DNA of 64,000 nucleotides from an uncultured Mycoplasmatota bacterium (GCA_947166445.1 CAMVED010000001.1:28368-92367), one strand, 5' to 3'. Counted from the first letter of the stretch, positions 2,650 to 35,796 are shown. Notes: generated from the sequence alone by a model not told the origin. Numbers and translations are program-made.

Positions 2650-2969
2650 AATATCACCCAGAATAATTATAACACAAAAAAAGATACATAAGTATCTAAG
2701 GTTTTAATTTAAAAGCAAATGAAAGTAATACACAAAAATATGAAAAATCAATCATATTTGGATTTATAACAATCATAGTTAAAAACAATACTACTATTAA
2801 TGTACTAACTACTGTCTTAGTATCAGTAATCATTCTTCTTTTTCCTCCTCTTATCATTTTTAACTGCATTTTCAATTTAAAAACAAAAAAACACAATTTT
2901 CAATAAAAAAAAGCATAAACCAAACAAGTTTACACTGTTATTTACTATTTTTTTTGTAAAAAAACATGA

Positions 2970-3515
2970 TTATTCAATATATTTTCCTAAAAATTTTGAA
3001 GCTATAGTTCCTGTTTTAATAACAAAATCATCAACTTTATCTTCTGAAGACATAATAATAACAGCACCAACAGCATCACCATTAGTAATGATTGGAGCAA
3101 TAACGTAACTAGCATCCAAACTATCACCAAGAACAATAGATATTTTTACTATTTCTTTTGAATATACTACAATTCTATTTTGTATTATTAAATCAATAGT
3201 AGGAGAAATAGGCTTATCTAAATACTTTTTCTTAAAATCACCAGAAACAGCCACTATTCTATCGCGATCAACAACTAGTATATTATAACCAATTTCAGAA
3301 TATATAGATTCAGCGTACATTTTATAAAAACTTTGTAAACCTTCTAAAGGAGAATACTTTTTTAAAACAATATTGTCACTATTCAAAAAAATTTCCAAAG
3401 ATTCACCATCTTTTATTCTAAGTGTTTTTCGTATTTCCTTAGGAATGACTATTCTGCCTAAATCATCAATCCTTCGTACAACACCAGTATTTTTCATTTC
3501 AAGCCTCACTTTCAC
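2970..3515 (-). CDS. spoVT: Stage V sporulation protein T (AbrB-family regulator with GAF-like C-domain)
   Basis: MK.TGVVRRIDDLGRIVIPKEIRKTLRIKDGE is near-identical to the Bacillus SpoVT N-terminus. Length 181 aa. Located downstream of mfd, as in Bacillus. Confidence 0.85.
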   Translation of the reverse strand: MKVRLEMKNTGVVRRIDDLGRIVIPKEIRKTLRIKDGESLEIFLNSDNIVLKKYSPLEGLQSFYKMYAESIYSEIGYNILVVDRDRIVAVSGDFKKKYLDKPISPTIDLIIQNRIVVYSKEIVKISIVLGDSLDASYVIAPIITNGDAVGAVIIMSSEDKVDDFVIKTGTIASKFLGKYIE

Positions 3516-3644
3516 TATAATTATTTTTTACAAATTATAAAAAAATATTCCTTGTTTTAATAACAAACTATATATCTATTATAATATCTATACCCCAGTA
3601 TTCTTACTGGTAATTTTTACCAATTTTTTTACATAAAAAAAGAA

Positions 3645-6600
3645 CTATATTAGTTCTTTAAACAATTTATTAAACGAGTTAACTATATTATCAGAATCTT
3701 TATAAAAAAGCTTAATTCCAATTATATTATTCTTATATGAAAAACTAAAACTTTTATTAATATTAAGAGCCTTAATAAACAAATCCTCATAATCCAGTTT
3801 AGCAGAAATATCTCTTTCTAAGAATACCTCTCTATATATACTATTATCAAATATTCTTAAAACACCTAACTTTTTACAAAAATTTTCAAATAATTGTTCA
3901 TTCATATAAGAAATCAAATCATTATCACAAGGCCCAAATCTATCTTCAATAGAAATTTTTACATTTTTCAAAGTTTCAAAAGAATCAATGCTATTAATAA
4001 GTTTATGTATCTCTATTTTTACGTCCTGATCAGAAACATAACTATCTTTTATATGGGAAGAAACATTTAAATTAATAGAGTCATCTTCATCTTCTTTAAC
4101 CTCTACCCCTTTAATTCTATTAACTTCTTCATCAAGCATCTTTAAATACAAATCAATGCCGACACTATCTATAAAACCAGCTTGGTCACTACCCAAAATA
4201 TCTCCTGCACCACGAATAGATAAATCACGAGCTGCAATAGCAAAACCACTTCCCAAAGAAGTAAAATCCTTAATTACTTTTAAACGTTTTACAGCCTTTT
4301 CAGTAAGAACACGACCTTTTTCATACATAAGATAAGCATAAGCAAGAGCATCACTTCTACCAACACGACCACGTATTTGATAAAGCTGAGATAAACCAAA
4401 TCTATCAGCATCCATAATAATCAAACTATTAACATTAGGAATATCTATTCCTGTTTCAATAATAGTAGTACAAACTAGTACATCAAACTTATTATCAACA
4501 AAATCATTCATCACAGCTTCAAAAGAATCCTTATCCATCTTACCATGAGCAAAATTGATACTTACATCAGGCAAAAGTTCACGAAACATATTAACTTTAG
4601 TCTCAATATCATCCACACGATTATAAAGAATAAACACCTGTCCTCCACGAGAAACTTCCTTATAAACAATTTCACGAACAAGTTTTTTATCAAAAGGAGT
4701 AACATAAGTAACAACAGATTTTCTATTTTTCGGAGGAGTTTCGATTAAAGACAAGTTTTTAATACCTAAAACAGCCATTTGAAGAGTACGAGGTATCGGA
4801 GTTGCAGTAAGCGTCAAAACATCAATATTACTCTTCATTTCTTTAATTTTTTCTTTTTGAATAACCCCAAAACGTTGTTCCTCATCAACAACTAAAAGCC
4901 CTAAATCATGGAAAATAACATCATCACTAAGACCTCTATGAGTTGCAAATACAATATCAATTTCCCCTTTTTTAAGCTTTTCCAAAGTTTTATTAATTGA
5001 TAAACTGCTTTCAAATCTATTTAAAATACCAATGTTAATTGGATAATTCTTAAATCTATCAAGAGCAACATCATATTGTTGACGACATAAAAGAGTCGTA
5101 GGACACAAATATAAAACTTGCTTATTATCAAAAACTGCTTTAAACATCGCTCTAAAAGCAACTTCAGTCTTTCCATAACCAACATCACCACATAAAATAC
5201 GATCCATTGGTAAAATACTTTCCATGTCAGATTTTATTTCTACAGTAGCACGTTCTTGATCAGTAGTAAAATCATATTCAAACTCACTTTCAAACATTTC
5301 TTGTAAAGCAGAATCTTTACTAAATGCAAAACCTTTTTTAACCTTACGTTCAGCTTGAATTCGAATAAGTCTTTCAGCCTCTATTCTAATTTTTTCACGA
5401 ATACGTTGTTTAGCCTTTACCCAAGCTGTACTATTAAGAGAACTAATATTAGGAACATATCCATCTTTACCATTATATTTACTAATAAGTTCTATTTTAG
5501 AAGCAGGAATATAAAGTTTATCACCTTTTGCATACAAAACTTCTAAATAATCACCAAGAACTCCACCTTTTTTTAAAGTAGTAATACCATTATAAATACC
5601 AATACCATGTAAACTATGAACAACAAAGTCACCGATCTCTAATTTAGACAAATCACGAATTCTAGAAGTATTCTTAAAACGAGTCCTTTTATTCATAACA
5701 GTCTTACGACCAAACAATTCATAATCAGTTAAAAATACAAAATCATCTTTTTCAAAACCTTCAGCTAGTCTTTTTCTAACAACATTGACCTTGCCAGGTA
5801 ACACATTATCAAAGTCAGTAATGACATAAGAACAATCAAGTTCATCCAAAAACTTATTAATATTTGAAGTATTAACACATAGTACTATAGTTTTTCCATC
5901 AGAAATACAGTTTTTAACAAATTTGTTGATTTCATCAAAGTTTTCCCCAAACCTTGGAACACTTTTAACTCCAAAACTAATAGTATTATTAAGCTTTATA
6001 TCAGATATGTTACTATCAAAATCAAAATAATACATTTTTTTATTTACATTAATATCAAATAAACCAAAATAAAAATCATCAAAATTATAATCCAATTCTA
6101 CACTATCAGAAGCCATCTTTTCATAAGAAAATTTAATTTGTTCAAAATCTTTAAAAATAACAATAGGATCATTTAAATAATCATAAATAGAAGAATTTCC
6201 ATTAGACACTTCATTAAAAGGAAGTATAGTAAAATTAGAAACACTATTAATAGATTTCTGACTATCTAAATCAAAATATCTAATGGATTCAATATCATCT
6301 CCAAAAAACTCAATTCTAATAGGATTATCAGAATTAATAGGAAAAATATCAAGTACAAAACCACGTAAAGCAAAATCACCCATCTTATCAACCATTGAAA
6401 CTCTCTCATATCCAAAATCTGTTAAAACCGAAGCTATATCATTCTGAGAAAAACTAGAACCGATTTCAAAAGAAATGCTTCTCTTGGCAAAATCAGAAAC
6501 AGACAAAAGTCTTCTAGTAAAACCACGTACATCAGTTAAAACAATCCTTTTTTTATCAGAACCGAGTTCATTCAAAGTATTTATTCTTTCAACCCTTAAT

Positions 6601-10344: not shown

Positions 10345-11985
10345 CTATCTTATTTCAACAATATCATCACCAAAAACATTTTGAGCAACCTTTAAAACAT
10401 CAGAAACATTTTCGGTAGATTCATTGTCTATTATAACATCATTTTTAATATCATGTTCCATATATTCATATTTTTTACCAGCCTTTACATCAGTTACATA
10501 CTTATTTTTAAGTTTATTCCACTCATCAGTATGAACAAAAGCAATATTATAAGATTTACCCATGACTAAATTAAATAAAAGTTCAAGTTTAGTAATATTA
10601 TTATTACCATTATCAACAATAGAATCATAATCAGCAGAAATAATAACATCCTCCTTACCAACCACCTGAACAGTTGAATCTAAAAAATAAGAAACCAAAG
10701 CAGAAAATTCTTTATTATGAACATAATCATAAAATCCCTTCCACTTATTAACAATATCATTCTTTAATTCCTTATTAGCAAGAGCAAATGCATTATTCAC
10801 AACAATATCAAAGTCTTTTCGTTTTTTCACAAATGTTTGTTTGTTATCATTAACATCAGTATTAACATTTCTAAAAGACTTACTAACATTTAAATCATTA
10901 ATAGAGCTAGAAATTATTTCCCGGGAAATAATTTCATCACTGTCTTCATTTTTTTCATTAGTAGAAATAGAATTAACAATCTTTAAAATTTCAATTTCAA
11001 AAAATAACATTTGATTAAAAGAATTGCGTAAACCATTATATATATAACTAACACCATCAATAATCTTCATAAAATCATCATCTGATATAATAATTTTATC
11101 TTTATTAACAGCAAGATTACGCATATAATTCAATAATTGTTCAGTAATTATTTCGATACTCTTCCCCGAATTAACTAATTTTTCCACAAAATCGAAAACA
11201 TTATTGATATCTCCACTACAAATATTAACAAAAAGTTCAGATATAATATCAGCATCAACAAGACCAACAACATCATAAAACAATTCCTCAGTAATAACAT
11301 TAGAATAAGATAACAATTTATCTAAAAGACCAATAGAATCACGCATACCACCATTACAATAAGAAGCAATTAGAGACAAAACATTAATATCAGCATCAAT
11401 ACCCTCATTATTACAAATATTAGATAAACATTCTACAATATCTTGAACACCAATACGTTTAAAATCATAGCATTGACACCTAGAAATAATAGTCTCAGGC
11501 ACTTTATTAATTTCAGTAGTAGCCAAAATAAAAATAACATGTTCTGGAGGTTCTTCTAAAGTTTTTAACAAAGCATTAAAAGCACTTGTAGAAAGCATAT
11601 GAACTTCATCAATAATATAAACTTTATATTTTGAAACACTTGGCATTAAAACAACACTATCACGAATAGTTCTAATTTCATCAACACCATTATTCGAAGC
11701 AGCATCTATTTCAATAATATCAGGGTTACTCCTATTATTAATAAGCTTACAACTATCACATTCATCACATGGATCAAAGCCATTTAGTTTAGAGCAATTA
11801 ACAATTTTAGAGAGCAACTTAGCAATAGTAGTCTTACCTGTACCCCTAGGACCTGAAAATAAATAAGCATGCATAAATCTATTATTAGAAATAGAATTTT
11901 TAACAATTTGAACAATATATTTTTGTCCATAAATCTCATCCAATTTTTTAGGACGATATTTACGATATAAAGCAACATATTCCAT
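10345..11985 (-). CDS. dnaX: DNA polymerase III subunit tau/gamma
   Basis: Walker A GPRGTGKTT, clamp-loader motifs, C4 Zn module CDECDSC. Length 546 aa. Confidence 0.95.
   Translation of the reverse strand: MEYVALYRKYRPKKLDEIYGQKYIVQIVKNSISNNRFMHAYLFSGPRGTGKTTIAKLLSKIVNCSKLNGFDPCDECDSCKLINNRSNPDIIEIDAASNNGVDEIRTIRDSVVLMPSVSKYKVYIIDEVHMLSTSAFNALLKTLEEPPEHVIFILATTEINKVPETIISRCQCYDFKRIGVQDIVECLSNICNNEGIDADINVLSLIASYCNGGMRDSIGLLDKLLSYSNVITEELFYDVVGLVDADIISELFVNICSGDINNVFDFVEKLVNSGKSIEIITEQLLNYMRNLAVNKDKIIISDDDFMKIIDGVSYIYNGLRNSFNQMLFFEIEILKIVNSISTNEKNEDSDEIISREIISSSINDLNVSKSFRNVNTDVNDNKQTFVKKRKDFDIVVNNAFALANKELKNDIVNKWKGFYDYVHNKEFSALVSYFLDSTVQVVGKEDVIISADYDSIVDNGNNNITKLELLFNLVMGKSYNIAFVHTDEWNKLKNKYVTDVKAGKKYEYMEHDIKNDVIIDNESTENVSDVLKVAQNVFGDDIVEIR
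10914..10931. promoter_or_regulatory. Noc-binding-site (NBS)-like palindrome TTATTTCCCGGGAAATAA, extended to a 24-bp perfect palindrome, inside the dnaX CDS
   Basis: Contains TATTTCCCGGGAAATA, the B. subtilis NBS consensus. CCCGGG is rare in this AT-rich DNA. The sequence encodes EIISREII. Confidence 0.6.
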
Positions 11986-12080
11986 ACCATCACGCTCCCT
12001 ACAAAAGATATAAAATATTATAACACAGAGACATTATTAATCAAACACAAATCAATTCAAATCAAAATATTTTTTAAACA

Positions 12081-12098
12081 ATGTTTCACGTGAAACAT
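12081..12098. promoter_or_regulatory. parS site 1 (ATGTTTCACGTGAAACAT)
   Basis: Perfect match to the 16-bp palindromic parS consensus TGTTTCACGTGAAACA. Confidence 0.85.
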
Positions 12099-12110
12099 AA
12101 ACCAATAAAA

Positions 12111-12130
12111 ATTATTTCCCGGGAAATAAT
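12111..12130. promoter_or_regulatory. NBS-like palindrome ATTATTTCCCGGGAAATAAT
   Basis: 20-bp perfect palindrome containing TATTTCCCGGGAAATA. Sits 13 bp from parS site 1. Confidence 0.6.
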
Positions 12131-12196
12131 CAAAGTAAAAAAAATGTATTACTGATACATTTTCAACAACATACAATAATATTTCACAAAAAAACA

Positions 12197-12214
12197 ATGT
12201 TTCACGTGAAACAT
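12197..12214. promoter_or_regulatory. parS site 2
   Basis: Perfect ATGTTTCACGTGAAACAT. Confidence 0.85.
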
Positions 12215-12374
12215 AGTAAAATTAATTTTAACAAAACAAAAAAAGACATATATAATCCAACAAAAACAACAAGCACAAAACAACCATGAATTAAAATAAT
12301 TAAAACAAATTATTTTAATATTAAACACATAAAAAATACTTATTAACAAAAACAACATTAAATTATAAAAATCT

Positions 12375-12392
12375 ATGTTTCACGTGAAACAT
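12375..12392. promoter_or_regulatory. parS site 3
   Basis: Perfect ATGTTTCACGTGAAACAT. Confidence 0.85.
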
Positions 12393-12546
12393 ATTAAAAC
12401 AAAATAATAATATATAATAATAAATACTATAAAACTAATTATTGACTAATATTATACACAATTACAAAAAAAAATAGTTATCATCAAAATTTCAAACAAA
12501 GAGGAAACTTATTAACAATAAATAATATATTTAATTACCAAACTAT

Positions 12547-12564
12547 ATGTTTCACGTGAAACAT
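12547..12564. promoter_or_regulatory. parS site 4
   Basis: Perfect copy, immediately 3' of the tadA stop codon. Confidence 0.85.
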
Positions 12565-12565
12565 A

Positions 12566-13021
12566 TTAAAAACAATTATCATCCAATGTTTCACGTGAAA
12601 CATTAAAAGATCTAACATTTCTAAAAAAATCAGACAATAATTCATTATATTGATAAAAATCATTAAGTTTTTCATAATTAATACTAGAAATATTAACATT
12701 CAAATTATCAGAATAATTTGAATCTAATAAATATATAACTTTTTTAATTCTAGATTCACCAATAGCAGCTTCACACATCCTACATGGTTTTAAAGTAACA
12801 TACATAACACAATCATCTAAATACCAAGAACCTACTATCTTACATGCATCTATAATACACAATAATTCAGCATGATAAATAGAAACATTATCAGAATTTT
12901 TTCTATTATGATTTGCAGATAAAATCTTATTATTTTTAACAATAACTGCACCGACAGGAACATTTCCTTCATTATAAGCAATTATCGCCTCTTTTACAGC
13001 AGCATCCATAAAACTATTCAT
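12566..13021 (-). CDS. tadA: tRNA-specific adenosine deaminase
   Basis: CDA fold motifs HAELLCI and PCRMCEAAI. Length 151 aa. tadA lies near dnaX, as in Bacillus. Confidence 0.85.
   Translation of the reverse strand: MNSFMDAAVKEAIIAYNEGNVPVGAVIVKNNKILSANHNRKNSDNVSIYHAELLCIIDACKIVGSWYLDDCVMYVTLKPCRMCEAAIGESRIKKVIYLLDSNYSDNLNVNISSINYEKLNDFYQYNELLSDFFRNVRSFNVSRETLDDNCF
12586..12603. promoter_or_regulatory. parS site 5 (inside the 3' end of the tadA ORF, encoding NVSRET)
   Basis: Perfect copy. Confidence 0.85.
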
Positions 13022-13032
13022 AAAATCACCCC

Positions 13033-13050
13033 ATGTTTCACGTGAAACAT
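13033..13050. promoter_or_regulatory. parS site 6
   Basis: Perfect copy, 12 bp upstream of the tadA start. Confidence 0.85.
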
Positions 13051-13074
13051 ATATAAAAGATATATTAACATTCT

Positions 13075-13092
13075 ATGTTTCACGTGAAACAT
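13075..13092. promoter_or_regulatory. parS site 7
   Basis: Perfect copy. Confidence 0.85.
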
Positions 13093-13120
13093 AGAATAAA
13101 TAAATACTAATAAATAAAAA

Positions 13121-13205
13121 GTGCACACACATAGAGGATTTTAAGGCTGCTATCTTCCGATCCTGACCTAGTTCAACCATATGTGTTGCACAAATAGATA
13201 ATACA
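13121..13205 (-). ncRNA. ffs: Signal recognition particle RNA, short 4.5S type
   Basis: The - strand reads ..GGUCAGGAUCGGAAGAUAGCAGCC.., the conserved SRP domain IV motif. A terminal stem GUGCAACACAUA/UAUGUGUGUGCAC is followed by a U-run. A TTGACT-N17-TATTAT promoter on the - strand sits at 13236..13208, with the -35 hexamer at 13231..13236 and the -10 hexamer at 13208..13213. Confidence 0.75.
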
Positions 13206-13252
13206 ACAATACAAAAATAAAGTCAATACAAATATATAATTAATGTTTCACG

Positions 13253-13270
13253 TGAAACATATAGTATAAG
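13253..13270. promoter_or_regulatory. parS site 8
   Basis: Perfect copy, upstream of the SRP RNA promoter. Confidence 0.85.
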
Positions 13271-13310
13271 TTTAAAAAAGTGTGATTTAAATACATTTTT
13301 AAGAATTACA

Positions 13311-13328
13311 TTATTTCCCGGGAAATAT
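13311..13328. promoter_or_regulatory. NBS-like palindrome TTATTTCCCGGGAAATAT, about 50 bp downstream of the gyrA stop
   Basis: Contains TATTTCCCGGGAAATA. It could also act as a weak gyrA terminator hairpin. Confidence 0.5.
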
Positions 13329-13375: not shown

Positions 13376-15844
13376 TTACTCATTTACAATTTCATCATTG
13401 TTAACAGAAGTTACTTCAGAATCATCTTCATTCTTTTCAGTTATAGTAACAGAAGTAACAAATTGATTATCTCTTAAATTCATAAGTCTCACACCTTGAG
13501 TATTTCTTCTCAAAGTAGAAATTTTGCTAACATCAAGTCTAATAATAGTACCCTCATCAGTAGTAATAATAATATCTTCATAACCAATAACAGATTTAAA
13601 TGCTACAATTAAACCATTTTTATCAGTAATATTAAGAGCTTTAACACCTTTTCCACCACGATGAGTTAATCGATATTCTTCAATATCTGTCTTCTTACCA
13701 TAACCCTTTTCAGTTACAACAAGTATTAATTCAGACTTATTAACAACTTCAGCACCGATCAATTTGGCATCAGCCATGTCAATGCCTCTTACACCAGAAG
13801 CACTTCTACCCATAATTCTAACTTCATTTTCATTAAATCTAACCATTCTACCAATATTTGAAGCCATAATAACCTCATTTTCACCAGTAGTCTTTTTAAC
13901 ACTAGTAAGCATATCACCTTCTTTTAAAGTAATAGCAATTTTACCAGACTTACGGATAGAATCAAATTCAGAAATATCTGTTCTCTTAACTAAACCATTT
14001 CTAGTAAAGAACATCAAATATTTAGCATCATCATCCTTAGCTACAGGAATAATAGTATTAACAATCTCATCTTTTTCCAAAGGTAAGATATTAACAATAG
14101 GAACCCCTTTAGATTGCCTACTAAACTCAGGAATCTCATATCCCTTAACACGATATACTTTACCTAAATTACTAAAGAACAATAAATTATCGTGAGTATC
14201 ACAAGTTATTAACATTTCAACATAATCTTCATCATTAGTAGACATCCCTTTAACACCTACACCACCACGATTTTGACTACGATATGTATCAGCGATCAAA
14301 CGTTTGATATATCCCCTTTTAGTCATTGATATTACTACATTATCATTAGGAATCAAAGACTCATCATCAATATAATCAATAGCAGTCATATCAATATCAG
14401 TACGTCTTTCATCACCATATTTATTCTTAATTTCAAGAAGTTCGTCCTTAATAATACCTAGAACCTTTTCTTCTGAAGCAAGAATAGCTTTATATTCTGC
14501 AATCTTTTCAAGAAGTTCAGCAAGTTCATTCTCAATCTTTTCACGTTCCAAACCAGTAAGTCTTCTAAGTCTCATTTCTAGAATAGCATTAGCTTGAACT
14601 TCAGTAAGACCAAATTTATTCATTAAACCAGTACGAGCTACATCATCATCTTGTGCCGCCCTAATAAGTTTAATAACTTCATCAATATTATCAAGAGCAA
14701 TCTTTAAACCTTCTAAAATATGAACTCTCTTTTCAGCTTTATCAAGATCAAATCTAGTTCTTCGAATAATAATTTCCTTTTGAAAATCAATATATTTAGA
14801 AATAATATCCTTAAGTCCTAAACTCTTAGGAACACCTTGATCAAGCATTAAAAAGTTAATACCATAATTAGTTTGAAATTGTGTATGTTTATATAAATTA
14901 TTTAAAACAATTTGAGGATTAGCATCCCTTTTCAAAGTTATAGTAATCTTAATACCATTTTTCAAATCAGTATGATAATCAGAAATACCATCAATAACCT
15001 TGTTATGAACAAGTTCAGCAACCTTATTTTTAAGTTCAGAAGTATTAACACCATAAGGAACCTCATCTATAACAATATAATTCTTACCATTTTTTTCCTC
15101 AATAGTAGCCCTACTTCTAATAGTTATAGAACCTCTACCAGTTTCATATGCCTTACGAATACCACTATTACCAAGAATAATAGCACCAGTAGGAAAATCA
15201 GGTCCCTTAACATACTTCATTAATTCATCTAAAGTAACATCAGGATTATCAATATAAGCAACACATCCATCAATAACCTCACTCAAATTATGTGGAGGTA
15301 TATTAGTAGCCATTCCAACAGCAATACCCATAGTACCATTAACCAAAATATTAGGAAACCTACTAGGTAAAATACTAGGTTCTTGCTCAGATTCATCAAA
15401 ATTAGGCTCAAAATCAACTGTATTCTTATTAATATCACGTAAAAGTTCTAATGACATTCTAGAAAGACGAGATTCAGTGTAACGCATCGCAGCAGCACCA
15501 TAACCTTCGATATTACCAAAGTTACCGTGACCATCCACAAGCATATAACGATAATTGAAATCTTGTGCCATCCTAACCATTGCTTCATAAATTGAACTAT
15601 CACCATGAGGATGATATTTCCCCATAACATCCCCAACAATTCTAGCACTCTTCTTATGAGGTTTATCAGGAGTATAACCAGATTCATACATAGAATACAA
15701 AATTCTACGGTGAACAGGTTTAAGTCCATCCCTTAAATCAGGAAGAGCACGAGAAACTATAACACTCATTGAATATTCTAGGAAAGATGTTTCAATTTCA
15801 TTTACTATATTGTTTTCTTCTAATCTATCTCTACTATGATCCAT
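13376..15844 (-). CDS. gyrA: DNA gyrase subunit A
   Basis: Length 822 aa. N-terminal [17 protein letters not shown]. Confidence 0.97.
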
Positions 15845-21716: not shown

Positions 21717-23099
21717 TTATGTTAATTGTTTTTCAATATTGTTGATTGCATCATTTAAATCCTTATTAATCTTCATTTCTCTTTCAATTTTATTACAAGC
21801 ATGTATTACAGTAGCATGATTTTTACCAGAAAATTCAATACCAATTCTTTCAAAAGACTCATCTGTAAGTTTTCTACACAAATACATAGCAACTTGTCTG
21901 GGAATAGCTAAATTTGGAGTTCTTTTCTTGGATTTCATATCCTCAAATGATATCTTATAAAAGTTAGCTACACTTTTTTGTATTCTACGAATATTATTCT
22001 GATCTGTAACAGTTTCTTTTTTAGTAAAATCTCTTAAAGCTTCCATGGCAAATTCTAAAGTAATATCAGTAACTCCCATAACTGCTGAATAAGCAATAAG
22101 TCTAGTAATGGAGCCTTCAAGCTGTCTTACATCATTGCCAACATTCGAAGCTATAAATGAAATAACATCATCGTTAATAAACAAAGCTTCTCGTTTTAGT
22201 TTTTTCTTAATAATGGCAACCTTTAAATCATAGTCAGGTGGACTAATATCGACTTGTAATCCCCAAGCAAATCTTGTTCTAAGTCTATCTTCAAGGACTT
22301 TTAAATCTTCTGGAGATCTATCAGAAGAAACAATAATTTGCTTACTATCATTATATAAATTATTAAATGTGTGAAAAAACTCTTGTTGCGTCTTCTCTGC
22401 CCCTCCTAAAAACTGAATATCATCAATTAACAATACATCAACATTACGATATTTACTCTTAAAAAAAGTTGCATAATCCAAGTTATTAAAATTATTTCCT
22501 TTTCTAGCAAGACCAGTAAAGTCATTCATAAAGTCATCACTAGTAACATATAATACCCGTTTTTTAAATTTATCTTCAATATAATTACCAATAGCATGCA
22601 TTAAATGAGTCTTACCAAGACCACTATTACCATATATAAATAAAGGATTATATAAAGTACCTGGGTTTTCAGCAACAGCAAGAGCGGCAGCTTGAGCAAA
22701 TTTATTTGATTCCCCTACTACAAAACTTTCAAATGTATAATTCTTATTTAAATTTGAAACATGATCCTTAATATAAGAAGAATTATTAACACTATCATTA
22801 GTAACAGGCTGATTTATATTATCCTTCTCTTTTTTTAAAAAATCATCAACATTATCTTGTAATATATATTTAATATTATCAACATTAGTTGTTAATAAGT
22901 TATTAAAACTATCAAGAATAATATCTTTATAATTTCTATCAATATGATTCTTATACCACATAATTGGAATAACTAATCTTACATTAGTATCTTCTATACC
23001 TATAAAATCAATATTTTTAAACCATGTATCATAAGATAAAGGATCGACGATATTACTAATATTATTTAAAACTTTAGACCATAATAATTTATCATCCAT
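21717..23099 (-). CDS. dnaA: Chromosomal replication initiator DnaA
   Basis: AAA+ GNSGLGKTHL. C-terminal DNA-binding domain. Length 460 aa. Confidence 0.97.
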   Translation of the reverse strand: MDDKLLWSKVLNNISNIVDPLSYDTWFKNIDFIGIEDTNVRLVIPIMWYKNHIDRNYKDIILDSFNNLLTTNVDNIKYILQDNVDDFLKKEKDNINQPVTNDSVNNSSYIKDHVSNLNKNYTFESFVVGESNKFAQAAALAVAENPGTLYNPLFIYGNSGLGKTHLMHAIGNYIEDKFKKRVLYVTSDDFMNDFTGLARKGNNFNNLDYATFFKSKYRNVDVLLIDDIQFLGGAEKTQQEFFHTFNNLYNDSKQIIVSSDRSPEDLKVLEDRLRTRFAWGLQVDISPPDYDLKVAIIKKKLKREALFINDDVISFIASNVGNDVRQLEGSITRLIAYSAVMGVTDITLEFAMEALRDFTKKETVTDQNNIRRIQKSVANFYKISFEDMKSKKRTPNLAIPRQVAMYLCRKLTDESFERIGIEFSGKNHATVIHACNKIEREMKINKDLNDAINNIEKQLT

Positions 23100-28601: not shown

Positions 28602-30464
28602 GTGATATATATGAAATACGATATAATCGTTGTAGGTGGTGGACATGCAGGATGTGAGGCAGCACTAGCTAGTAGCAGACTAAACAATAAAACTCTGCTT
28701 ATAACAGGAAATATAAATAACATAGCAGATTGCCCATGTAATCCGTCAATCGGAGGATCAGCTAAAGGAATAGTAGTACGTGAAATAGATGCTCTTGGAG
28801 GAGAAATGGGTATTAATGCTGATAAATCACTTCTTCAAATCAAAAAACTAAATACTAGAAAAGGACCAGCAGTTTGGTCACTAAGATCACAAATAGATAA
28901 AGTAGATTATACACAAAATATGATAGAAACAATAAAAAAACAAACCAATCTAGATATAAAAGAAACCTTTGCAGAGCATTTAATAATAGAAAATAATACT
29001 GTAAAAGGAATAATAACAAAAGAAAAAGAAGAAATCAAAGCTAAAGCAGTTATTTTAACAACAGGTACATATTTAAACTCAAACATTCTAATAGGAAGTA
29101 CTAAAAAACAAGAAGGACCTCATGGAGAAAAAACAGAATTACATTTAAGTAAAAATTTAAAAGAACTAGGTTTCACTATTCAAAGATTAAAAACAGGTAC
29201 TCCTCCAAGAATAAAAAGAGATACAATAGATTTTTCAAAAACAAAAGTTGAAAAGGGTAGTGATGTACCATTACAATTCTCATTTTATGAAAAATCACCA
29301 TTTGATATATCAAAACAAGAGGATTGTTATCTAATTTATACAACACCAAAAACACATAAAATAATAAACGAAAATTTAGAAAAATCTGCAATGTATGGAG
29401 GATATGTTGAAGGAATAGGACCTCGTTATTGTCCTTCAATTGAAGATAAATTAGTAAAATTCAAAGACAAAGAACGTCATCAACTATTTTTAGAACCAGA
29501 GAGTAAACACTATGATGACATCTATATTCAAGGCTTTTCATCAAGTATGCCAATTGAAGTTCAAGATAAAATGGTGCATAGCTTACCAGGACTAGAAAAC
29601 TGTGAAATACTAAAATATGCTTACGCAATTGAATACGATGCAATAGATCCAACACAATTAAAAAGATCGCTTGAAACAAAAATAATTGAAAATCTTTTCA
29701 CAGCAGGTCAAATAAATGGAACAAGTGGTTATGAAGAAGCAGCTTGTCAAGGATTAATAGCAGCAATAAATGCAAATCAAAAAATAAAAAACAAAGAACC
29801 ATTAATATTAAGAAGAGATGAAGCTTATATTGGAGTTTTAATTGATGATTTAGTGACCAAAGGAACAAATGAACCTTATAGATTACTAACATCAAGGGCA
29901 GAATATAGATTACTGTTAAGAGATGACAACGCTGATTTAAGGCTTACGGAATACGGAAGAAAAGTAGGATTAGTAAAAGATAAACAATATAAAATTTTTA
30001 AAAAGAAAAAAGAACAAATAGAAAAACTTTTAAAAGAACTAAATCAAACAATAACACCAACAAAACAAATAAATGAAGTTTTAAAAGAAAGTAATATAAA
30101 ACCAATACAAGATAAAATATCACTACATGATTTATTAAAAAAACCAGATGTATCTGTAGATAAACTAAACAATTTTATAAAAGAAAGCTATTCAAAAGAA
30201 GTAGCAGAAGAAGTAGAAATAATAATTAAATACGAAGGATATATAAAAAAACAAATAGAAGATGCTGAAAAACAAAAAGAATATGAAAACATAAAACTAA
30301 ATGAAGAAATAGATTATGCAAAAATACCAAATTTAGCACTTGAAGCAAGAGAAAAATTAAATAAAATAAAACCAACTTCCATAGGCCAAGCAATGAGAAT
30401 AAGTGGAGTAAACCCAAGTGATATAAGTGTTCTAACTATTTATTTAAGGAGTAAAAATGAATAA
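28602..30464 (+). CDS. mnmG: tRNA uridine 5-carboxymethylaminomethyl modification enzyme MnmG (GidA)
   Basis: FAD motif IIVVGGGHAGCEAA. Length 620 aa. The true start is probably MKYDII at 28611. Confidence 0.95.
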   Translation: MIYMKYDIIVVGGGHAGCEAALASSRLNNKTLLITGNINNIADCPCNPSIGGSAKGIVVREIDALGGEMGINADKSLLQIKKLNTRKGPAVWSLRSQIDKVDYTQNMIETIKKQTNLDIKETFAEHLIIENNTVKGIITKEKEEIKAKAVILTTGTYLNSNILIGSTKKQEGPHGEKTELHLSKNLKELGFTIQRLKTGTPPRIKRDTIDFSKTKVEKGSDVPLQFSFYEKSPFDISKQEDCYLIYTTPKTHKIINENLEKSAMYGGYVEGIGPRYCPSIEDKLVKFKDKERHQLFLEPESKHYDDIYIQGFSSSMPIEVQDKMVHSLPGLENCEILKYAYAIEYDAIDPTQLKRSLETKIIENLFTAGQINGTSGYEEAACQGLIAAINANQKIKNKEPLILRRDEAYIGVLIDDLVTKGTNEPYRLLTSRAEYRLLLRDDNADLRLTEYGRKVGLVKDKQYKIFKKKKEQIEKLLKELNQTITPTKQINEVLKESNIKPIQDKISLHDLLKKPDVSVDKLNNFIKESYSKEVAEEVEIIIKYEGYIKKQIEDAEKQKEYENIKLNEEIDYAKIPNLALEAREKLNKIKPTSIGQAMRISGVNPSDISVLTIYLRSKNE

Positions 30465-31152
30465 CGAAACTTTTAAAAAAGAATTAAAAAAACTAAATAT
30501 AGAGTTAACAAAAGAACAAGAACAACAATTAGAAAAGTATTATGAAATGTTAATAGAAACAAATAAATATATTAATTTAACAAGAATAACCAATAAAGAA
30601 GAAGTATATTTAAAACACTTTTATGATTCATTAACAATAATAAAAACAATAGATCTAACAGATAGTTTATCACTGATAGATATAGGAACAGGAGCTGGTT
30701 TTCCAGGACTAGTATTAAAAATAGTCTTTCCAAATCTAAAAGTAACACTCCTTGATTCATTAAATAAAAGAATAGAATTTTTAAACACTGTAATAAATGA
30801 ACTAAATTTAAAAGGAATCAAAACAATTCATTCAAGAATTGAAGATTATAAAGAAGAACAATTTGACATAGTAACATCTAGAGCCGTAGCAAAAACTAAT
30901 ATTCTTTTAGAACTATCATACAATTTAGTAAAACCAAATGGCTACTATATTTTTCTAAAAAGTGATATAGAACAAGAATTAAAAGAATCAGAAAATGCTA
31001 TAAAAATACTAAATTTAGAACTAATAAAAGTAGAAAAATTCATTTTACCGATAGAAAACAGTAAAAGAACAATAATAAAATTAAAAAAGACTTCAAAAAC
31101 AAATAGTAAATACCCAAGAAATTTTACACAAATCAAGAAAAATCCATTGTAA
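30457..31152 (+). CDS. rsmG: 16S rRNA m7G527 methyltransferase RsmG (GidB)
   Basis: SAM motif IGTGAGFPG. Length 231 aa. Confidence 0.93.
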   Translation: MNNETFKKELKKLNIELTKEQEQQLEKYYEMLIETNKYINLTRITNKEEVYLKHFYDSLTIIKTIDLTDSLSLIDIGTGAGFPGLVLKIVFPNLKVTLLDSLNKRIEFLNTVINELNLKGIKTIHSRIEDYKEEQFDIVTSRAVAKTNILLELSYNLVKPNGYYIFLKSDIEQELKESENAIKILNLELIKVEKFILPIENSKRTIIKLKKTSKTNSKYPRNFTQIKKNPL

Positions 31153-31217
31153 AATTTCTTTTTTTGTTGTAAAATGCTAATATAGGGAAAGTATGTAAAA
31201 AGAATAGAGGGATTTAT

Positions 31218-32573
31218 ATGAATTTAGAAAAAGAGATTTTTGATATATCATTACAAGATATAATTCCAAATAGATTTCAACCACGCGAAATATTTAACGA
31301 TAACGAACTGGCAGAATTATCAGAATCAATAAAACAACACGGAGTAATTCAACCAATAATAGTTAGAAAAGTAGGAGACAAATACGAAATAATTGCAGGA
31401 GAACGTCGTTTTAGGGCTTCACAAATGGCAGGAAAAGAAACAATACCAGCCTTAGTAAGAGATATAGATGATAAAGAAGCTGCCAAAATAGCACTTTTAG
31501 AAAATCTTCAAAGAAGCAATTTAACTCCAATAGAAGAAGCAAAAACATATCAAACAATACTAAAAATAGATAATATAACTCAAGATGAATTAGCAAATAA
31601 TTTAGGAAGATCACAATCAACAATTGCAAATAAACTAAGATTGTTAACTTTAACAGAAGAAGTTCAAACAGCACTTTTAAATTCCCAAATATCTGAACGC
31701 CATGCAAGAAGTTTATTAGGTTTAACAAATGAACAACAAATACAACTATTACACAAAACATTACAGGAAAAGCTAACAGTTAGACAATTAGATGAAGAAG
31801 TAATGAAAATGACTGGTAAAATACCAGACACTAACATAAATAATGATGTAACAACTAATAGTTTTGAAGGAGATCCGATAATGAATAATCAATTTTCAAG
31901 TTTAGGAAGTCAAAACATTAGCGTTCCAGAAGTACCAGAACCAAATGTCAACATTTTAAACACAACAATACCGTTACCAAATCAAAGCAACGAAAATGAA
32001 GATCCTGTAATAAATATACCAACAGTGGATATGCCATCGCCAGTAGGAGCAGTTCAAAATAATCAATCATTTATAAATAGCAGTTCATTCCCAAATACTG
32101 AAATGCCAATAATAAATGAAAATCAAACACCAGAAACAATAAATACTCAAGATAATAATAATTCAGTTCAAATAGAAATGCCACAAATACCTAGTGAAAC
32201 ACCAATTGAAGCAAGTATTACAGATAACAATCAACCAGAACCAATCACTAATGATGTTGTGCAAGACCAAGCAGTAATTTCAGAAGAACAACCAAAAGTT
32301 GAAAATATATTTGATAAATTAAGAGTAAATAGAGAAGAAAATCAAGAAAATAAATTCAATTTAAAAACACCTGATTTATCAAGTGTAATAGGACCACAGC
32401 CAACAAATGAACACCAAGAAGACAATTATAATGATATATATGATTTAAGATTTGCTATTAATAATTTTAGGCAAGCAGTTCAAAATACAGAAAAATTTGG
32501 TTTCAAAGTTAATGTAGACGAAAAAGATAATGGAGATAAATATCAAATAATTATAGAAATAGATAAAAAATAA
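31218..32573 (+). CDS. noc: Noc-like ParB-family protein with a long low-complexity insertion
   Basis: ParB box GERRFRAS. HTH RSQSTIANKLRLL..ISERHARSL resembles B. subtilis Noc. The rsmG-noc-soj-spo0J order holds. About 200 aa of N/Q/P/T/E-rich sequence separates it from the C-terminal dimerisation-like segment. Confidence 0.75.
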   Translation: MNLEKEIFDISLQDIIPNRFQPREIFNDNELAELSESIKQHGVIQPIIVRKVGDKYEIIAGERRFRASQMAGKETIPALVRDIDDKEAAKIALLENLQRSNLTPIEEAKTYQTILKIDNITQDELANNLGRSQSTIANKLRLLTLTEEVQTALLNSQISERHARSLLGLTNEQQIQLLHKTLQEKLTVRQLDEEVMKMTGKIPDTNINNDVTTNSFEGDPIMNNQFSSLGSQNISVPEVPEPNVNILNTTIPLPNQSNENEDPVINIPTVDMPSPVGAVQNNQSFINSSSFPNTEMPIINENQTPETINTQDNNNSVQIEMPQIPSETPIEASITDNNQPEPITNDVVQDQAVISEEQPKVENIFDKLRVNREENQENKFNLKTPDLSSVIGPQPTNEHQEDNYNDIYDLRFAINNFRQAVQNTEKFGFKVNVDEKDNGDKYQIIIEIDKK

Positions 32574-32598: not shown

Positions 32599-33933
32599 TT
32601 AATACCACATATCTGTATATAAACCATCATCTTTATATAAATCATCTAAAAGTACAGCTTGAACAAATTCATCAGAAGCCTCTTCAAAAGTATAAGTATT
32701 TATAACAGGTCCACCAAAAGTCCAAAGAGATTCTGCAACATATACATGTTCATCATCAATACCAGCAATTATAGCGATATGTCCCCAAACTCCTAGAAGA
32801 TCACCAGCTTTAACCTTTCCGGACTTAAATAACTCCACGGAAGTATCCGTTTTAACACCACCTATATCATTTATTTCATTAGTATCTTCAAGATTGTCAC
32901 CAGCACCTTTATCTCCAACATCAAATCCGCCATTTAAAATGCTCCATGAAACAAAGCCACTACAATCAAGGCCATTAGGTTTATATTGACCTTTTTTAAA
33001 TACGGTTCCCCAATCTTCATAATTTTTAAGAGGACATCCCCATATAGCAGGACCTGCAAAGGAATATTTTAAACTCTTAAACTTATCTTCATGTAAATAT
33101 AAACCTTTATGATAGTATCTTCCTTCACCATCAGCATTGTGCATACCGCCATCAATTCTTCCATTCTCAAAGAAATATTCTATTTGATAAGGAAAATCAA
33201 GCATCAAAAATCTTATAGATTCAACAACAGCAGCACGAGTACCATAACCACCAACAGATTCAATTTTATCCTTCAAGATTTCATCTAATTTATTTACTTC
33301 CTTTTTAGAATAACGATTACAAGGTAAATTTGGTTTGTTATGATTGAAATTTTTAGAACGCTTTGAAATCAAGTTAGTAACCTCAACTTCAACTTCTTTC
33401 GAATAATTATCATTAACTGTCATAATTACCTTAGTAGTTCCAACTTTTTTACCAATGACCTTATTTTTTTTAATAGAAACAATTCTATTATTCAAAGATT
33501 CATAAACAATATTTTGATTCTTACCAATTAACTTCAATTTTGGATTTAATTCTTTTTTTTCACCAAGAGCTAAATAAACCTTTTTAGGCAAATTATCGCC
33601 AATAACTAAATCATTAATTTCAAAATTTCTAACAAATACATATTTTTTTATATAAATTTTAGAAAGATTTTTATCAACCTTTAAATTACACTCATTATTA
33701 GAAACACTAAGCCATTTAATGCTACGATTATTTGTACTAAAACCACATTTTATATCACTATTTAGTTTACTAACTTTTAAAGTAAAAATATCGTCATCAG
33801 ATTCAACAACACTTAAATTGTTCAAAACATCAATATCATAAAAAGGTTTTAAGTAAAAATAGCTAACAAAAGAACTTATACTAACAGTAAAGAATAACAT
33901 AGCAAAAAAAATTAACCACCTTTTTTTCTTCAT
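32599..33933 (-). CDS. Secreted NlpC/P60 (C40) family cell-wall peptidase with N-terminal signal/TM and beta-rich domain
   Basis: Catalytic Cys motif DCSGFVSW and downstream GHIAII His motif. Length 444 aa. Confidence 0.65.
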   Translation of the reverse strand: MKKKRWLIFFAMLFFTVSISSFVSYFYLKPFYDIDVLNNLSVVESDDDIFTLKVSKLNSDIKCGFSTNNRSIKWLSVSNNECNLKVDKNLSKIYIKKYVFVRNFEINDLVIGDNLPKKVYLALGEKKELNPKLKLIGKNQNIVYESLNNRIVSIKKNKVIGKKVGTTKVIMTVNDNYSKEVEVEVTNLISKRSKNFNHNKPNLPCNRYSKKEVNKLDEILKDKIESVGGYGTRAAVVESIRFLMLDFPYQIEYFFENGRIDGGMHNADGEGRYYHKGLYLHEDKFKSLKYSFAGPAIWGCPLKNYEDWGTVFKKGQYKPNGLDCSGFVSWSILNGGFDVGDKGAGDNLEDTNEINDIGGVKTDTSVELFKSGKVKAGDLLGVWGHIAIIAGIDDEHVYVAESLWTFGGPVINTYTFEEASDEFVQAVLLDDLYKDDGLYTDMWY

Positions 33934-34148: not shown

Positions 34149-34928
34149 ATGGGAAAAGTGATTTCATTAATAAATCAAAAAGGCGGAGTAGGCAAGACAA
34201 CAACAAGTATAAATTTGGCAGCATCCCTAGCATTATTAGGTAAAAAAATACTATTAATAGATTTAGATCCACAATGTAATGCAACAACAGGAATAGGATT
34301 AAATAAAGGTGACATAGAAAAAAGTATTTATAATGTTTTTAATGGTACATCAACTATAGAAGATGCTACCTTAAAAACAAGATATAAAAACTTGTATGTG
34401 CTTCCGGCTAATATAAATCTTGCTGGTATTGATATAGAACTAGAGCAATCTAATCAAAACATAGGAGTATCTAAAGCAGAGAGATTAAAATATCACATAG
34501 ATAAAGTCAAAAAAGATTATGATTATATATTGATAGATTGTCCCCCAGCACTAGGAATAATAACAACAAATGCATTAACAGCATCTGATTCAGTAATAAT
34601 ACCGGTACAATGTGAATTCTTTGCACTTGAAGGAATAACACAACTTCTAAAAGCAATAATGTATACACAAGCAAATCTAAATCCAAATTTATCGATTGAA
34701 GGAGTACTACTTACAATGCTTGATGCAAGAACAAACCTAGGTTTAGAAGTAGTTGAAGAAATAAGAAGTTATTTTAAAGATAAAGTATATAATACAATAA
34801 TTCCAAGATTAATTAGATTGACAGAAGCCCCATCACATGGGAAACCAATAGTAGCTTATGATCCAAAATCACGTGGATCTGAAGCATATTTAAATTTAGC
34901 GAAAGAGGTGATTAAAGCAAATGAATGA
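34149..34928 (+). CDS. soj: Chromosome partitioning ATPase Soj/ParA
   Basis: Deviant Walker A KGGVGKTTT. Length 259 aa. Confidence 0.95.
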   Translation: MGKVISLINQKGGVGKTTTSINLAASLALLGKKILLIDLDPQCNATTGIGLNKGDIEKSIYNVFNGTSTIEDATLKTRYKNLYVLPANINLAGIDIELEQSNQNIGVSKAERLKYHIDKVKKDYDYILIDCPPALGIITTNALTASDSVIIPVQCEFFALEGITQLLKAIMYTQANLNPNLSIEGVLLTMLDARTNLGLEVVEEIRSYFKDKVYNTIIPRLIRLTEAPSHGKPIVAYDPKSRGSEAYLNLAKEVIKANE

Positions 34929-35796
34929 TCAACCAAAAAGAAGAGCATTAGGACGTGGACTTGAAGAATTGTTTAATATCGAAGATATAAATTATAACAA
35001 AATTGAAGAAAAAATAATGGAAACTACAGACGAAAGCGAAATAAAAGAAATACCAATTGAAAAGTTAAGAGTTAATCCATATCAACCAAGAAAAACATTT
35101 AACGAAGAATCACTTAACGAACTTGCAGAATCTATAAAAGAACATGGAGTGATTCAACCAATAATAGTTAAAAAAAGTATAAAAGATTATGAAATAGTAG
35201 CAGGAGAACGTCGTTTTAGAGCATCAAAACTTGCAGGGAAAGAAACTATTCCTTGTATAGTTAAAGATTTCACTGATGAACAAATGATGGAAATTGCAGT
35301 ACTTGAAAATTTACAAAGAGAAGATTTAAATTCTATAGAAGAAGCATTAGGATTTGAAACACTAATGACAAACTTAAATTTAACACAAGAACAATTAGCA
35401 AAAAGAGTAGGCAAAAGTAGAAGTTATATAACAAACATGTTGGGGCTTTTAAATCTGCCTCCAGAAGTAAAAGAATTAGTAAAGCAAGGAAAAATATCAA
35501 CAAGTCACGCTAGGACTCTTTCAAAAATAGAAGATTCAGAAAAAATAAAAGAATTAGCAAATAAGATAATAAATGAAAACTTAAATGTAAGACAAATAGA
35601 AGAAGTATCAAAAGAAACTCCAAAAAAAGTAAAACAAAGACATACAGAAAAAAACAAAGAATTTGAAGAATTAGAACAAGAATTAGTAGATTATTTAGGA
35701 ACAAAAGTAAAAGTTAAAAACAAAAAAATAGAAATAAGTTATGAAAATGAAAATGATTTAAATAAAATATTAGAAATAATTAATTTTAATAAGTAG
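34921..35796 (+). CDS. spo0J: Chromosome partitioning protein Spo0J/ParB
   Basis: GERRFRASKLAG. HTH KSRSYITNMLGLL. Length 291 aa. Confidence 0.93.
   Translation: MNDQPKRRALGRGLEELFNIEDINYNKIEEKIMETTDESEIKEIPIEKLRVNPYQPRKTFNEESLNELAESIKEHGVIQPIIVKKSIKDYEIVAGERRFRASKLAGKETIPCIVKDFTDEQMMEIAVLENLQREDLNSIEEALGFETLMTNLNLTQEQLAKRVGKSRSYITNMLGLLNLPPEVKELVKQGKISTSHARTLSKIEDSEKIKELANKIINENLNVRQIEEVSKETPKKVKQRHTEKNKEFEELEQELVDYLGTKVKVKNKKIEISYENENDLNKILEIINFNK

Follow-up and report, generated by a model that had tools for sequence, protein, structure and literature searches.

Exact Noc-binding sites clustered with parS near the replication origin of an uncultured Mycoplasmatota bacterium and a Noc-like ParB paralog predicted to read them

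A stretch of DNA from an uncultured Mycoplasmatota bacterium (GCA_947166445.1, CAMVED010000001.1:28368-92367), analyzed over its full length of 64,000 nt and called the window hereafter, carries three exact copies of the Noc-binding site (NBS) packed together with an array of parS sites near the replication origin (oriC). The three palindromes are very probably loading sites for a Noc-like ParB paralog encoded at 31218-32573 in the same window, and this pairing of site and protein is well supported by comparison of their sequences. We think it probable that the NBS and parS sites together form a composite, origin-proximal, centromere-like locus for two orthogonal ParB-family proteins, with the Noc-like protein acting as an accessory of the origin or centromere.

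Three exact Noc-binding sites stand with a parS array near oriC

The window has a GC content of about 26%. The full 16-bp palindrome TATTTCCCGGGAAATA, which contains the NBS core consensus ATTTCCCGGGAAAT, is matched exactly three times in it, at 10915-10930 (NBS1), 12113-12128 (NBS2), and 13312-13327 (NBS3), and no further copies with three or fewer mismatches were found in the 64 kb. Shuffled sequences gave a mean of 0.36 matches in the same search, and none of 100 shuffles reached three. Motifs of this type are the Noc-binding site described for Bacillus subtilis and Staphylococcus aureus (PMC8429893, PMC5540599). The original prediction for this DNA, which had reported three perfect Noc-consensus palindromes, was therefore right about the sites themselves. 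It had also remarked that CCCGGG is otherwise very rare, and indeed this hexamer occurs in the window solely within the three NBS copies (0.19 expected), a scarcity that a GC content of 26% predicts.

The starts given at that stage (10914, 12111, and 13311) identify the right sites but fall 1 to 2 nt off the starts of the 16-mers, because the palindromes run past them. NBS1 is the core of a perfect palindrome of 26 bp (10910-10935), not of 24 bp as first described, whereas the perfect palindromes at NBS2 and NBS3 measure 20 bp (12111-12130) and 16 bp (13312-13327). The claim that Noc and Spo0J sites differ by 2 bp per half-site holds for the NBS and parS sequences found here.

All three NBSs, none of which has a strand, fall within 2.4 kb of the window. 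NBS1 lies within dnaX codons 352-357, in a hypervariable linker of DnaX. NBS2 is intergenic, with a putative dnaX promoter about 70 bp downstream of it, and NBS3 is intergenic as well, about 49 nt beyond the gyrA stop codon, where a T-run follows it on the plus strand. The gyrA terminator (13381-13360) is separate from NBS3. No tandem or dispersed repeat was found around the NBSs of the window. Their spacing is nearly equal, at 1198 and 1199 bp; a designed equal spacing was set aside as a probable coincidence, and the spacings in relatives range from 187 to 1283 bp.

Eight perfect parS sites (TGTTTCACGTGAAACA) begin at 12082, 12198, 12376, 12548, 12587, 13034, 13076, and 13244, each of them a palindrome of at least 18 bp and, like the NBSs, without strand (array 12082-13259). 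The array lies 9-11 kb from dnaA (21717-23099, minus strand), which stands beside the GC-skew minimum at about 22-24 kb, and this minimum places oriC about 9-12 kb from the site cluster. With soj and spo0J encoded in the window and with R173 in Spo0J, the array is a canonical chromosomal parS/ParB centromere. The origin-side boundary of the cluster is the 3' end of gyrA (13376-15844, minus strand), a gene also identified by synteny. NBS2 and the parS at 12082 are 31 bp apart from center to center, with the parS on the dnaX side. The two site classes had been described as interleaved, and this is true to the extent that NBS2 and NBS3 bracket seven parS sites and that one parS lies between NBS1 and NBS2, but NBS1 itself stands 1.2 kb outside the array.

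The NBS inside dnaX is maintained as DNA

The gene that holds NBS1 (10345-11985, minus strand) encodes a 546-amino-acid (aa) DNA polymerase III gamma/tau protein. Its match to NCBIfam PRK05563 (487 bits) confirms the earlier assignment to dnaX, and with it the claim that one NBS lies in dnaX coding sequence. In a codon alignment, the region of DnaX around NBS1 has no amino acid conservation and many insertions and deletions. The 16-mer is nevertheless found there in seven genomes: in the window and loci L081, L084, L085, and L033 it is read in the phase that gives …IISREII… (…EIISREII… in the window), and in L002 and L011 it is read in the phase that gives …FPGN…. It is absent from dnaX of L082, L083, L086, and L087. 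Because the same 16-mer occurs in two reading phases of a variable linker, it is apparently the nucleotide sequence that is maintained and not the peptide. Selection on the DNA motif, as had been suggested for this copy, is thus strongly supported by the comparison of these genes.

The sites recur at the same places in related genomes

A scan of genome collections with DnaX as the query returned only distant relatives of about 40% identity, all of them metagenome-assembled genomes (MAGs) of uncultured Bacilli from gut or rumen. Several of the distant MAG loci have an exact NBS beside dnaX; L001 carries seven NBSs at a period of 62-63 bp, and L005 carries six that alternate with six parS sites. 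Of the 11 classical Bacillales dnaX loci among the results, none has an NBS.

Seven syntenic relatives (L081-L087, about 21 kb each), whose DnaX proteins are 53-79% identical to that of the window, were fetched via the protein database. Each has two to five exact NBSs, all located between the 3' end of gyrA and about nucleotide 1065 of dnaX. These stand among six to eight parS sites, or four in L085, where the contig ends just upstream of tadA. Elsewhere in these loci there is almost no CCCGGG. Three slots for the NBS recur, namely 3' of gyrA, upstream of dnaX, and inside dnaX. The first of these adjoins the gyrA stop codon in the window, L082, and L083, and lies about 200 bp past gyrA in L081. 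All eight close genomes (the window and its seven relatives) have an NBS/parS pair 100-220 bp upstream of dnaX; the distance from NBS to parS in this slot is 31-42 bp in five genomes and 80 and 115 bp in two others. Because NBS positions are conserved across genomes in this way, a restriction- or transposon-derived sequence scattered at random, the case raised against the original prediction, is excluded.

On the opposite side of oriC, where the noc, soj, and spo0J genes are located, neither NBS nor parS was found in 41 kb of the window or in 21 kb each of two relatives (L208, which is on the same contig as L082, and L209).

NBSs in metagenomes are concentrated at the origin and paired with parS

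The bare 16-mer TATTTCCCGGGAAATA matched at least 120 loci in a scan of metagenomes. Among the matches listed, 50 of the 56 low-GC loci (GC below 0.31) carry homologs of the origin-proximal genes of the window. Most of them fall in the stretch from dnaA to mfd, with one on the jag/mnmE side and one downstream of spo0J. In the window this stretch is about 20 kb long, or about 1-2% of the 1.52-Mb genome of a complete relative, and the NBS thus seems to be essentially a one-locus feature in this lineage. The evidence for confinement to the origin locus is strong but indirect.

Taken over all low-GC loci among the matches listed, 54 of 100 NBSs lie no more than 100 bp from a parS, the distances peaking at 26-36 and 58-62 bp, although tandem arrays inflate these counts. 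Such arrays consist of head-to-tail repeat units of 62-126 bp. The array of L005 (8616-9321) comprises 5.6 copies, 87-90% identical, of a 126-bp unit that contains a single parS and a single NBS, and other arrays are present in L001 (19-434), L113 (150-2105), L155 (209-1767), L197 (2468-3007), and L110 (2838-3329). Neither the recurrence of the layout across the clade nor these arrays had been recognized in the original prediction. The NBSs also have a flanking preference, AAAT…ATTT, which extends the consensus to 24 bp.

The two site classes are sharply separated. Counts among the matches listed, for low-GC loci L001-L209 together with the window, are 137 perfect NBSs and 110 perfect parS sites versus about five hybrids. 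The near absence of hybrids argues for two readers. It also echoes the switch-like specificity landscape obtained by deep mutational scanning.

A Noc-like ParB paralog has NBS-type specificity residues

Both ParB-family genes that had been called in the window, at 31218-32573 and at 34921-35796, were confirmed by domain matches. The first (plus strand) encodes the Noc-like ParB paralog of 451 aa, with ParB_N and HTH_ParB domains, and is the predicted NBS binder. Its Pfam match to ParB_N has an E value of 5e-36, and Noc proteins are the highest-scoring hits in the PDB (7ng0, 197.9 bits). The motifs for binding cytidine triphosphate (CTP) are intact (GERRFRA and ENLQRSNLTPIEEA, the latter of the ENLQR type), align to those of the Noc structures, and are also kept among its homologs.

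The residues that set the specificity of ParB and Noc have been defined previously: ParB has R173, T179, A184, and G201, and Noc has Q173, K179, K184, and R201 (PMC7383237; Jalal 2020). Q173 reads A1 and R201 reads C6, the bases that set NBS apart from parS, and for the permissive residue one K, at position 179 or 184, suffices (PMC7383237). In the Noc-like protein, the corresponding residues are Q133, K139, T144, and R161. The resulting QKTR set, compared to QKKR in Noc, agrees with Noc at three of four positions (Q, K, and R) and differs at position 184, which is T here and N or S in some homologs. All 120 homologs examined have QK[T/N/S]R at these positions. These residues, together with the parS-type R173 in the Spo0J of the window, bear out the earlier designation of this protein as Noc-like.

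In the Noc-like protein, the C-terminal 57 aa can be aligned to positions 199-255 of the Noc model TIGR04285 (E value of 1.2e-7); when the last 74 aa were compared with PDB sequences, there was no significant match. With its C-terminal match to the model, the protein appears to span the whole Noc profile, although an insert of about 195 residues interrupts it. The gene directly follows rsmG (gidB; 30457-31152, plus strand). Given the coverage of the profile and this place right after rsmG, we infer that the Noc-like protein is a Noc ortholog.

The arrangement in B. subtilis is rsmG-noc-soj-spo0J. In the window, one inserted open reading frame (ORF) separates the Noc-like gene from soj (parA; 34149-34928, plus strand), which encodes an ATPase identified by domain matches, whereas in L209 the Noc-like gene directly adjoins soj. 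The inserted ORF (32599-33933, minus strand) would encode 444 aa and has no match in Pfam or NCBIfam; it is kept in L208 (11423-12763) and is absent from L209.

The second ParB-family gene, spo0J (parB; 34921-35796, plus strand), encodes a protein of 291 aa with a ParB_C domain, which is the predicted parS binder. Spo0J carries an N-terminal peptide of the ParA-interaction type (RALGRGLEELF), and this peptide is absent from the Noc-like protein. Its recognition helix is GKSRSYITNM…, and its specificity residues are R-M-N-S. Position 201 is S in the Spo0J proteins of the window and of L208 (13704-14579), in the context …ISTSHAR…, and G in that of L209 (12226-13101). Against the Noc model TIGR04285, the Spo0J of the window scores 249.9 bits.

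The Noc-like protein lacks the membrane-targeting helix of Noc

In B. subtilis, an N-terminal amphipathic helix of Noc brings DNA to the membrane, and occlusion is impaired when the helix is missing (PMC8429893, citing Adams 2015; PMC4331003). In the alignment with Geobacillus thermoleovorans Noc, the Noc-like protein, which starts with MNLEKEIFDISLQDIIPNRFQPR, has its residue 5 opposite residue 26. Its start codon is fixed by an in-frame stop at 31170 and by the ribosome-binding site AGAGGG located 8 nt upstream of the ATG. All 120 homologs examined, like the protein itself, start 16 residues before PNRFQPR, and all lack the N-terminal segment of about 26 residues that carries the membrane-targeting helix. 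By this alignment, the Noc-like protein is the natural counterpart of NΔ26, a construct made for crystallography.

The other departure is the linker between the DNA-binding and C-terminal domains. It is about 195 aa long, disordered, rich in N, Q, and P, and hypervariable in both length and sequence. The exception is (E)NIFD(K/R)LR(V/I), at aa 361-370 (window 32298-32327), which is almost invariant across the 120 homologs. This ENIFDKLRV motif could form an amphipathic helix of two turns and is a candidate for binding a partner or the membrane.

A proposed mechanism and the explanations that compete with it

We propose that a dimer of the Noc-like protein would read the NBS through its recognition helix, with Q173 specifying the A, R201 specifying the C, and K179 as the permissive residue. 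The protein would then bind CTP, close into a clamp, and slide onto the flanking DNA, where its domain would overlap that of ParB loaded from parS. ParB and Noc are both CTP-dependent clamps that slide away from their loading sites (PMC8429893), and by analogy with them the two nucleoprotein domains would have to overlap. Output from the Noc-like clamp would probably run through ENIFDKLRV in the long disordered linker. The sequences show directly the sites, how they are conserved and paired with parS, and the domains and residues of the Noc-like protein; its NBS binding, clamp behavior, and cellular role are inferred from these, and the last is speculative. The lack of a membrane helix and the restriction of its sites to a single locus suggest an accessory of the origin complex or centromere rather than a chromosome-wide occlusion factor, with possible functions in origin organization, cohesion, segregation, replication initiation, or the control of ParB spreading. 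S. aureus Noc is known to affect replication initiation (PMC5540599).

A wider proposal, which we put forward tentatively and with some doubt, concerns the whole clade of uncultured, small-genome Bacilli. Here, Noc may have no role in occlusion and instead be an additional clamp of the centromere, one that assembles together with ParB at a single origin-proximal locus where NBS and parS sites are paired or alternate, and that signals via ENIFDKLRV as a new short linear motif. Such a protein might be an intermediate in the evolution of Noc from ParB, in which specificity has switched while the membrane anchor and the genome-wide dispersal of sites have not yet been gained, or it might result from secondary repurposing; in both cases the locus would be a natural centromere with two clamps.

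Several points weigh against a composite locus served by a separate Noc-type reader. The Noc-like protein scores 297.9 bits with TIGR04285, below the curated cutoff of 315, and it is about equally similar to B. subtilis Spo0J (185.6 bits) and B. subtilis Noc (184.4 bits). Its assignment as an ortholog of Noc therefore depends on gene order, its C-terminal domain, and its specificity residues. Neither QKTR nor QKAR was found as an individual variant in the text and searched supplements of PMC7383237. A membrane-binding element may also be located elsewhere in the Noc-like protein, the ENIFDKLRV motif being one example. The confinement of the NBS to the origin locus is judged from the 64-kb window, about 190 kb of relatives, and a sample of metagenomes, and six low-GC loci among the matches listed there, mostly contigs of 1-2 kb, are unplaced. 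Finally, it is notable that the Spo0J of the window has S201, the residue enriched among dual-specificity variants.

The first competing explanation is classical nucleoid occlusion, in which the three sites would be the origin-nearest members of a chromosome-wide set of NBSs, and the protein would tether DNA to the membrane and block division as in B. subtilis and S. aureus. The identical 16-bp site, the NBS-type residues, the CTP motifs, and the gene position in the order rsmG-noc-soj-spo0J are all what such a system should have. However, the N-terminal amphipathic helix that occlusion requires (PMC8429893, PMC4331003) is absent from the protein and from its 120 homologs. Furthermore, the other 61 kb of the window has no NBS at three or fewer mismatches, the relatives have none on the noc side of oriC, and 50 of 56 low-GC metagenome loci among the matches listed fall within about 1-2% of a genome of about 1.5 Mb. 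Tight pairing and tandem co-amplification with parS likewise have no counterpart in the classical system. We therefore regard this explanation as unlikely, and the occlusion role contemplated in the original prediction is not borne out by a protein family that has no membrane-targeting helix and whose sites are confined to one origin-proximal locus. If instead the NBS were a second class of site for Spo0J/ParB itself, the Noc-like protein would not be needed at all. G201 has been found to be absolutely conserved in ParB orthologs, and the dual-specificity variants recovered by deep mutational scanning mostly have T or S at this position (PMC7383237), so that S201 in the Spo0J of the window and of L208 fits this idea. 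Yet the R-M-N-S combination retains R173 and lacks a K or R at either 179 or 184, as is typical of parS-specific variants, and the relative L209 has G201. A QK[T/N/S]R paralog is kept in every homolog examined, the NBS and parS classes are sharply separated with few hybrids, and exact NBSs in higher-GC lineages co-occur with QK[K/R]R paralogs. A dual-specificity Spo0J is consequently a distinctly unlikely source of the NBSs.

KorB and VirB are ParB-family proteins that act as regulators, and the sites might similarly be operators through which the Noc-like protein, with or without ParB, regulates dnaX-ybaB-recR, tadA, scr, or gyrA, with origin organization not its primary function. The NBS/parS pair that each of the eight close genomes has 100-220 bp upstream of dnaX would suit this role, as would the position of the window pair just upstream of a good promoter match (12044-12017, minus strand) and of the parS sites that adjoin the promoter of the SRP RNA gene and the ribosome-binding site of tadA. 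On the other hand, sites vary freely in number and position, from two to seven and up to tandem arrays, and they include copies inside dnaX and 3' of gyrA. Such variation fits a loading platform better than the fixed geometry of an operator. A promoter scan gave 30 matches versus 25.5 ± 5.5 in shuffled sequence, which is no excess, and we give the operator explanation little chance of being correct. Explanations that require no dedicated binding protein are scarcely credible. CCCGGG is a known restriction site, and the palindromes could in principle be leftovers of SmaI/XmaI-type restriction-modification, hairpin terminators, or remnants of repeats or mobile elements; perfect palindromes can form hairpins, and a T-run follows NBS3. 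Nevertheless, conservation covers all 16 bp and the AAAT/ATTT flank preference rather than just the 6-bp core, and it is the sequence, not merely a structure, that is kept at orthologous slots in genomes whose DnaX proteins are only 40-79% identical. The palindrome has no loop, the window sites have no surrounding repeats, and CCCGGG is as rare as the GC content predicts. A role for the NBS as terminator or hairpin was rejected on two grounds, the separate terminator of gyrA and the conservation of the 16-mer at the level of sequence.

Comparison with known systems

The composite locus resembles the Noc/NBS systems of B. subtilis and S. aureus in its identical TATTTCCCGGGAAATA and in its presumed reader, a ParB-family protein with CTP motifs, Q173/K179/R201, and a Noc-type C-terminal domain, encoded directly after rsmG and before soj-spo0J. 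It differs in that this protein has no membrane-targeting helix, has T, N, or S instead of K at position 184, carries a linker of about 195 aa with ENIFDKLRV, and falls below the NCBIfam cutoff. Moreover, NBSs in the Noc systems are spread across one-half to two-thirds of the chromosome on the origin side (41 loci in S. aureus), leaving out the terminus region, whereas here they occupy a segment of a few kilobases and are paired with parS. As in chromosomal ParABS systems, there is an origin-proximal cluster of perfect 16-bp palindromes for a ParB-family CTP-dependent clamp, if the Noc-like protein indeed behaves as a clamp. In contrast to ParABS, the same locus holds a second, orthogonal class of sites for a paralog, sometimes one for one with parS in repeats. 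Plasmid centromeres such as sopC of F consist of tandem iterated binding sites, and the head-to-tail repeats of 62-126 bp in L005, L001, L113, L155, L197, and L110 are similar to these. Unlike in sopC, there are two different palindromes per unit for two paralogs, the locus is chromosomal, and the window sites are not in a tandem repeat.

A literature search, for which most subscription journals were out of reach, found no account of NBSs confined to a centromere locus, of NBSs paired or co-amplified with parS, or of a conserved, anchorless Noc ortholog with a long linker and a new motif. Thus, NBS, parS, ParB, and Noc are known components, and their confinement, their pairing, and the anchorless ortholog appear to be undescribed.

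Noc and ParB are a textbook case of a duplicated DNA-binding protein that changes both specificity and function, and so far a single end state has been characterized, the Noc of Bacillus and Staphylococcus, which tethers DNA to the membrane and acts chromosome-wide. Here, specificity has switched completely, in that NBS and parS are both perfect and hybrids are nearly absent, yet the anchor and the dispersed sites that are hallmarks of Noc are lacking, and NBS and parS are physically linked. If our reading of a composite locus is correct, these organisms would offer a natural system for the role of a ParB paralog before, or without, nucleoid occlusion, and would make it possible to test whether a few kilobases of DNA are shared or divided up between two sliding clamps that depend on CTP. 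The compact, orthogonal, co-amplified pair of loading sites could be useful for DNA-labeling tools based on ParB-parS and Noc-NBS. The NBS in a tolerant segment of dnaX would be a clean case of a protein-binding site kept by selection inside a coding region.

Neighboring genes and further observations

The genes leading away from dnaA on the minus strand are, in order, dnaN, recF, gyrB, gyrA, the small signal recognition particle (SRP) RNA gene, tadA, dnaX, ybaB, and recR, and the series continues to mfd. On the other side of oriC are mnmE, mnmG, rsmG, the Noc-like gene, the opposite-strand ORF, soj, and spo0J. Two genes are embedded in the parS array, namely a tadA-like gene for tRNA adenosine deaminase (12566-13021, minus strand) and the SRP RNA gene (13105-13199, minus strand). 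The centromere sites crowd closely against these small essential genes: the parS at 12587-12602 lies inside the last codons of tadA, at the 3' end of its coding sequence, the parS at 13034-13049 lies directly upstream of the tadA ribosome-binding site, and the parS at 13244-13259 lies just upstream of the -35 element of a match to an SRP RNA promoter.

Six of the relatives (L081-L084, L086, and L087) have a ComK-family gene between dnaN and recF, at about 2.0-3.2 kb, and the sequence of L085 starts downstream of this position. SpoVT/AbrB-type and BofA genes are found near the ComK-family gene. Genes of these kinds are unexpected for small (about 1.5 Mb), AT-rich genomes.

Metagenome contigs of much higher GC content (39-62%) carry a single exact NBS within the coding sequence of a ParB paralog that has QK[K/R]R residues. 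These exact matches are at 2833 in L133 (gene 2653-3681), 1502 in L117 (gene 1064-2119), and 1728 in L190 (gene 1371-2267), with each gene on the minus strand, and homology matches suggest that rsmG or soj is nearby. The occurrence of parS inside spo0J is well known, and the NBSs within these higher-GC ParB paralogs mirror it.

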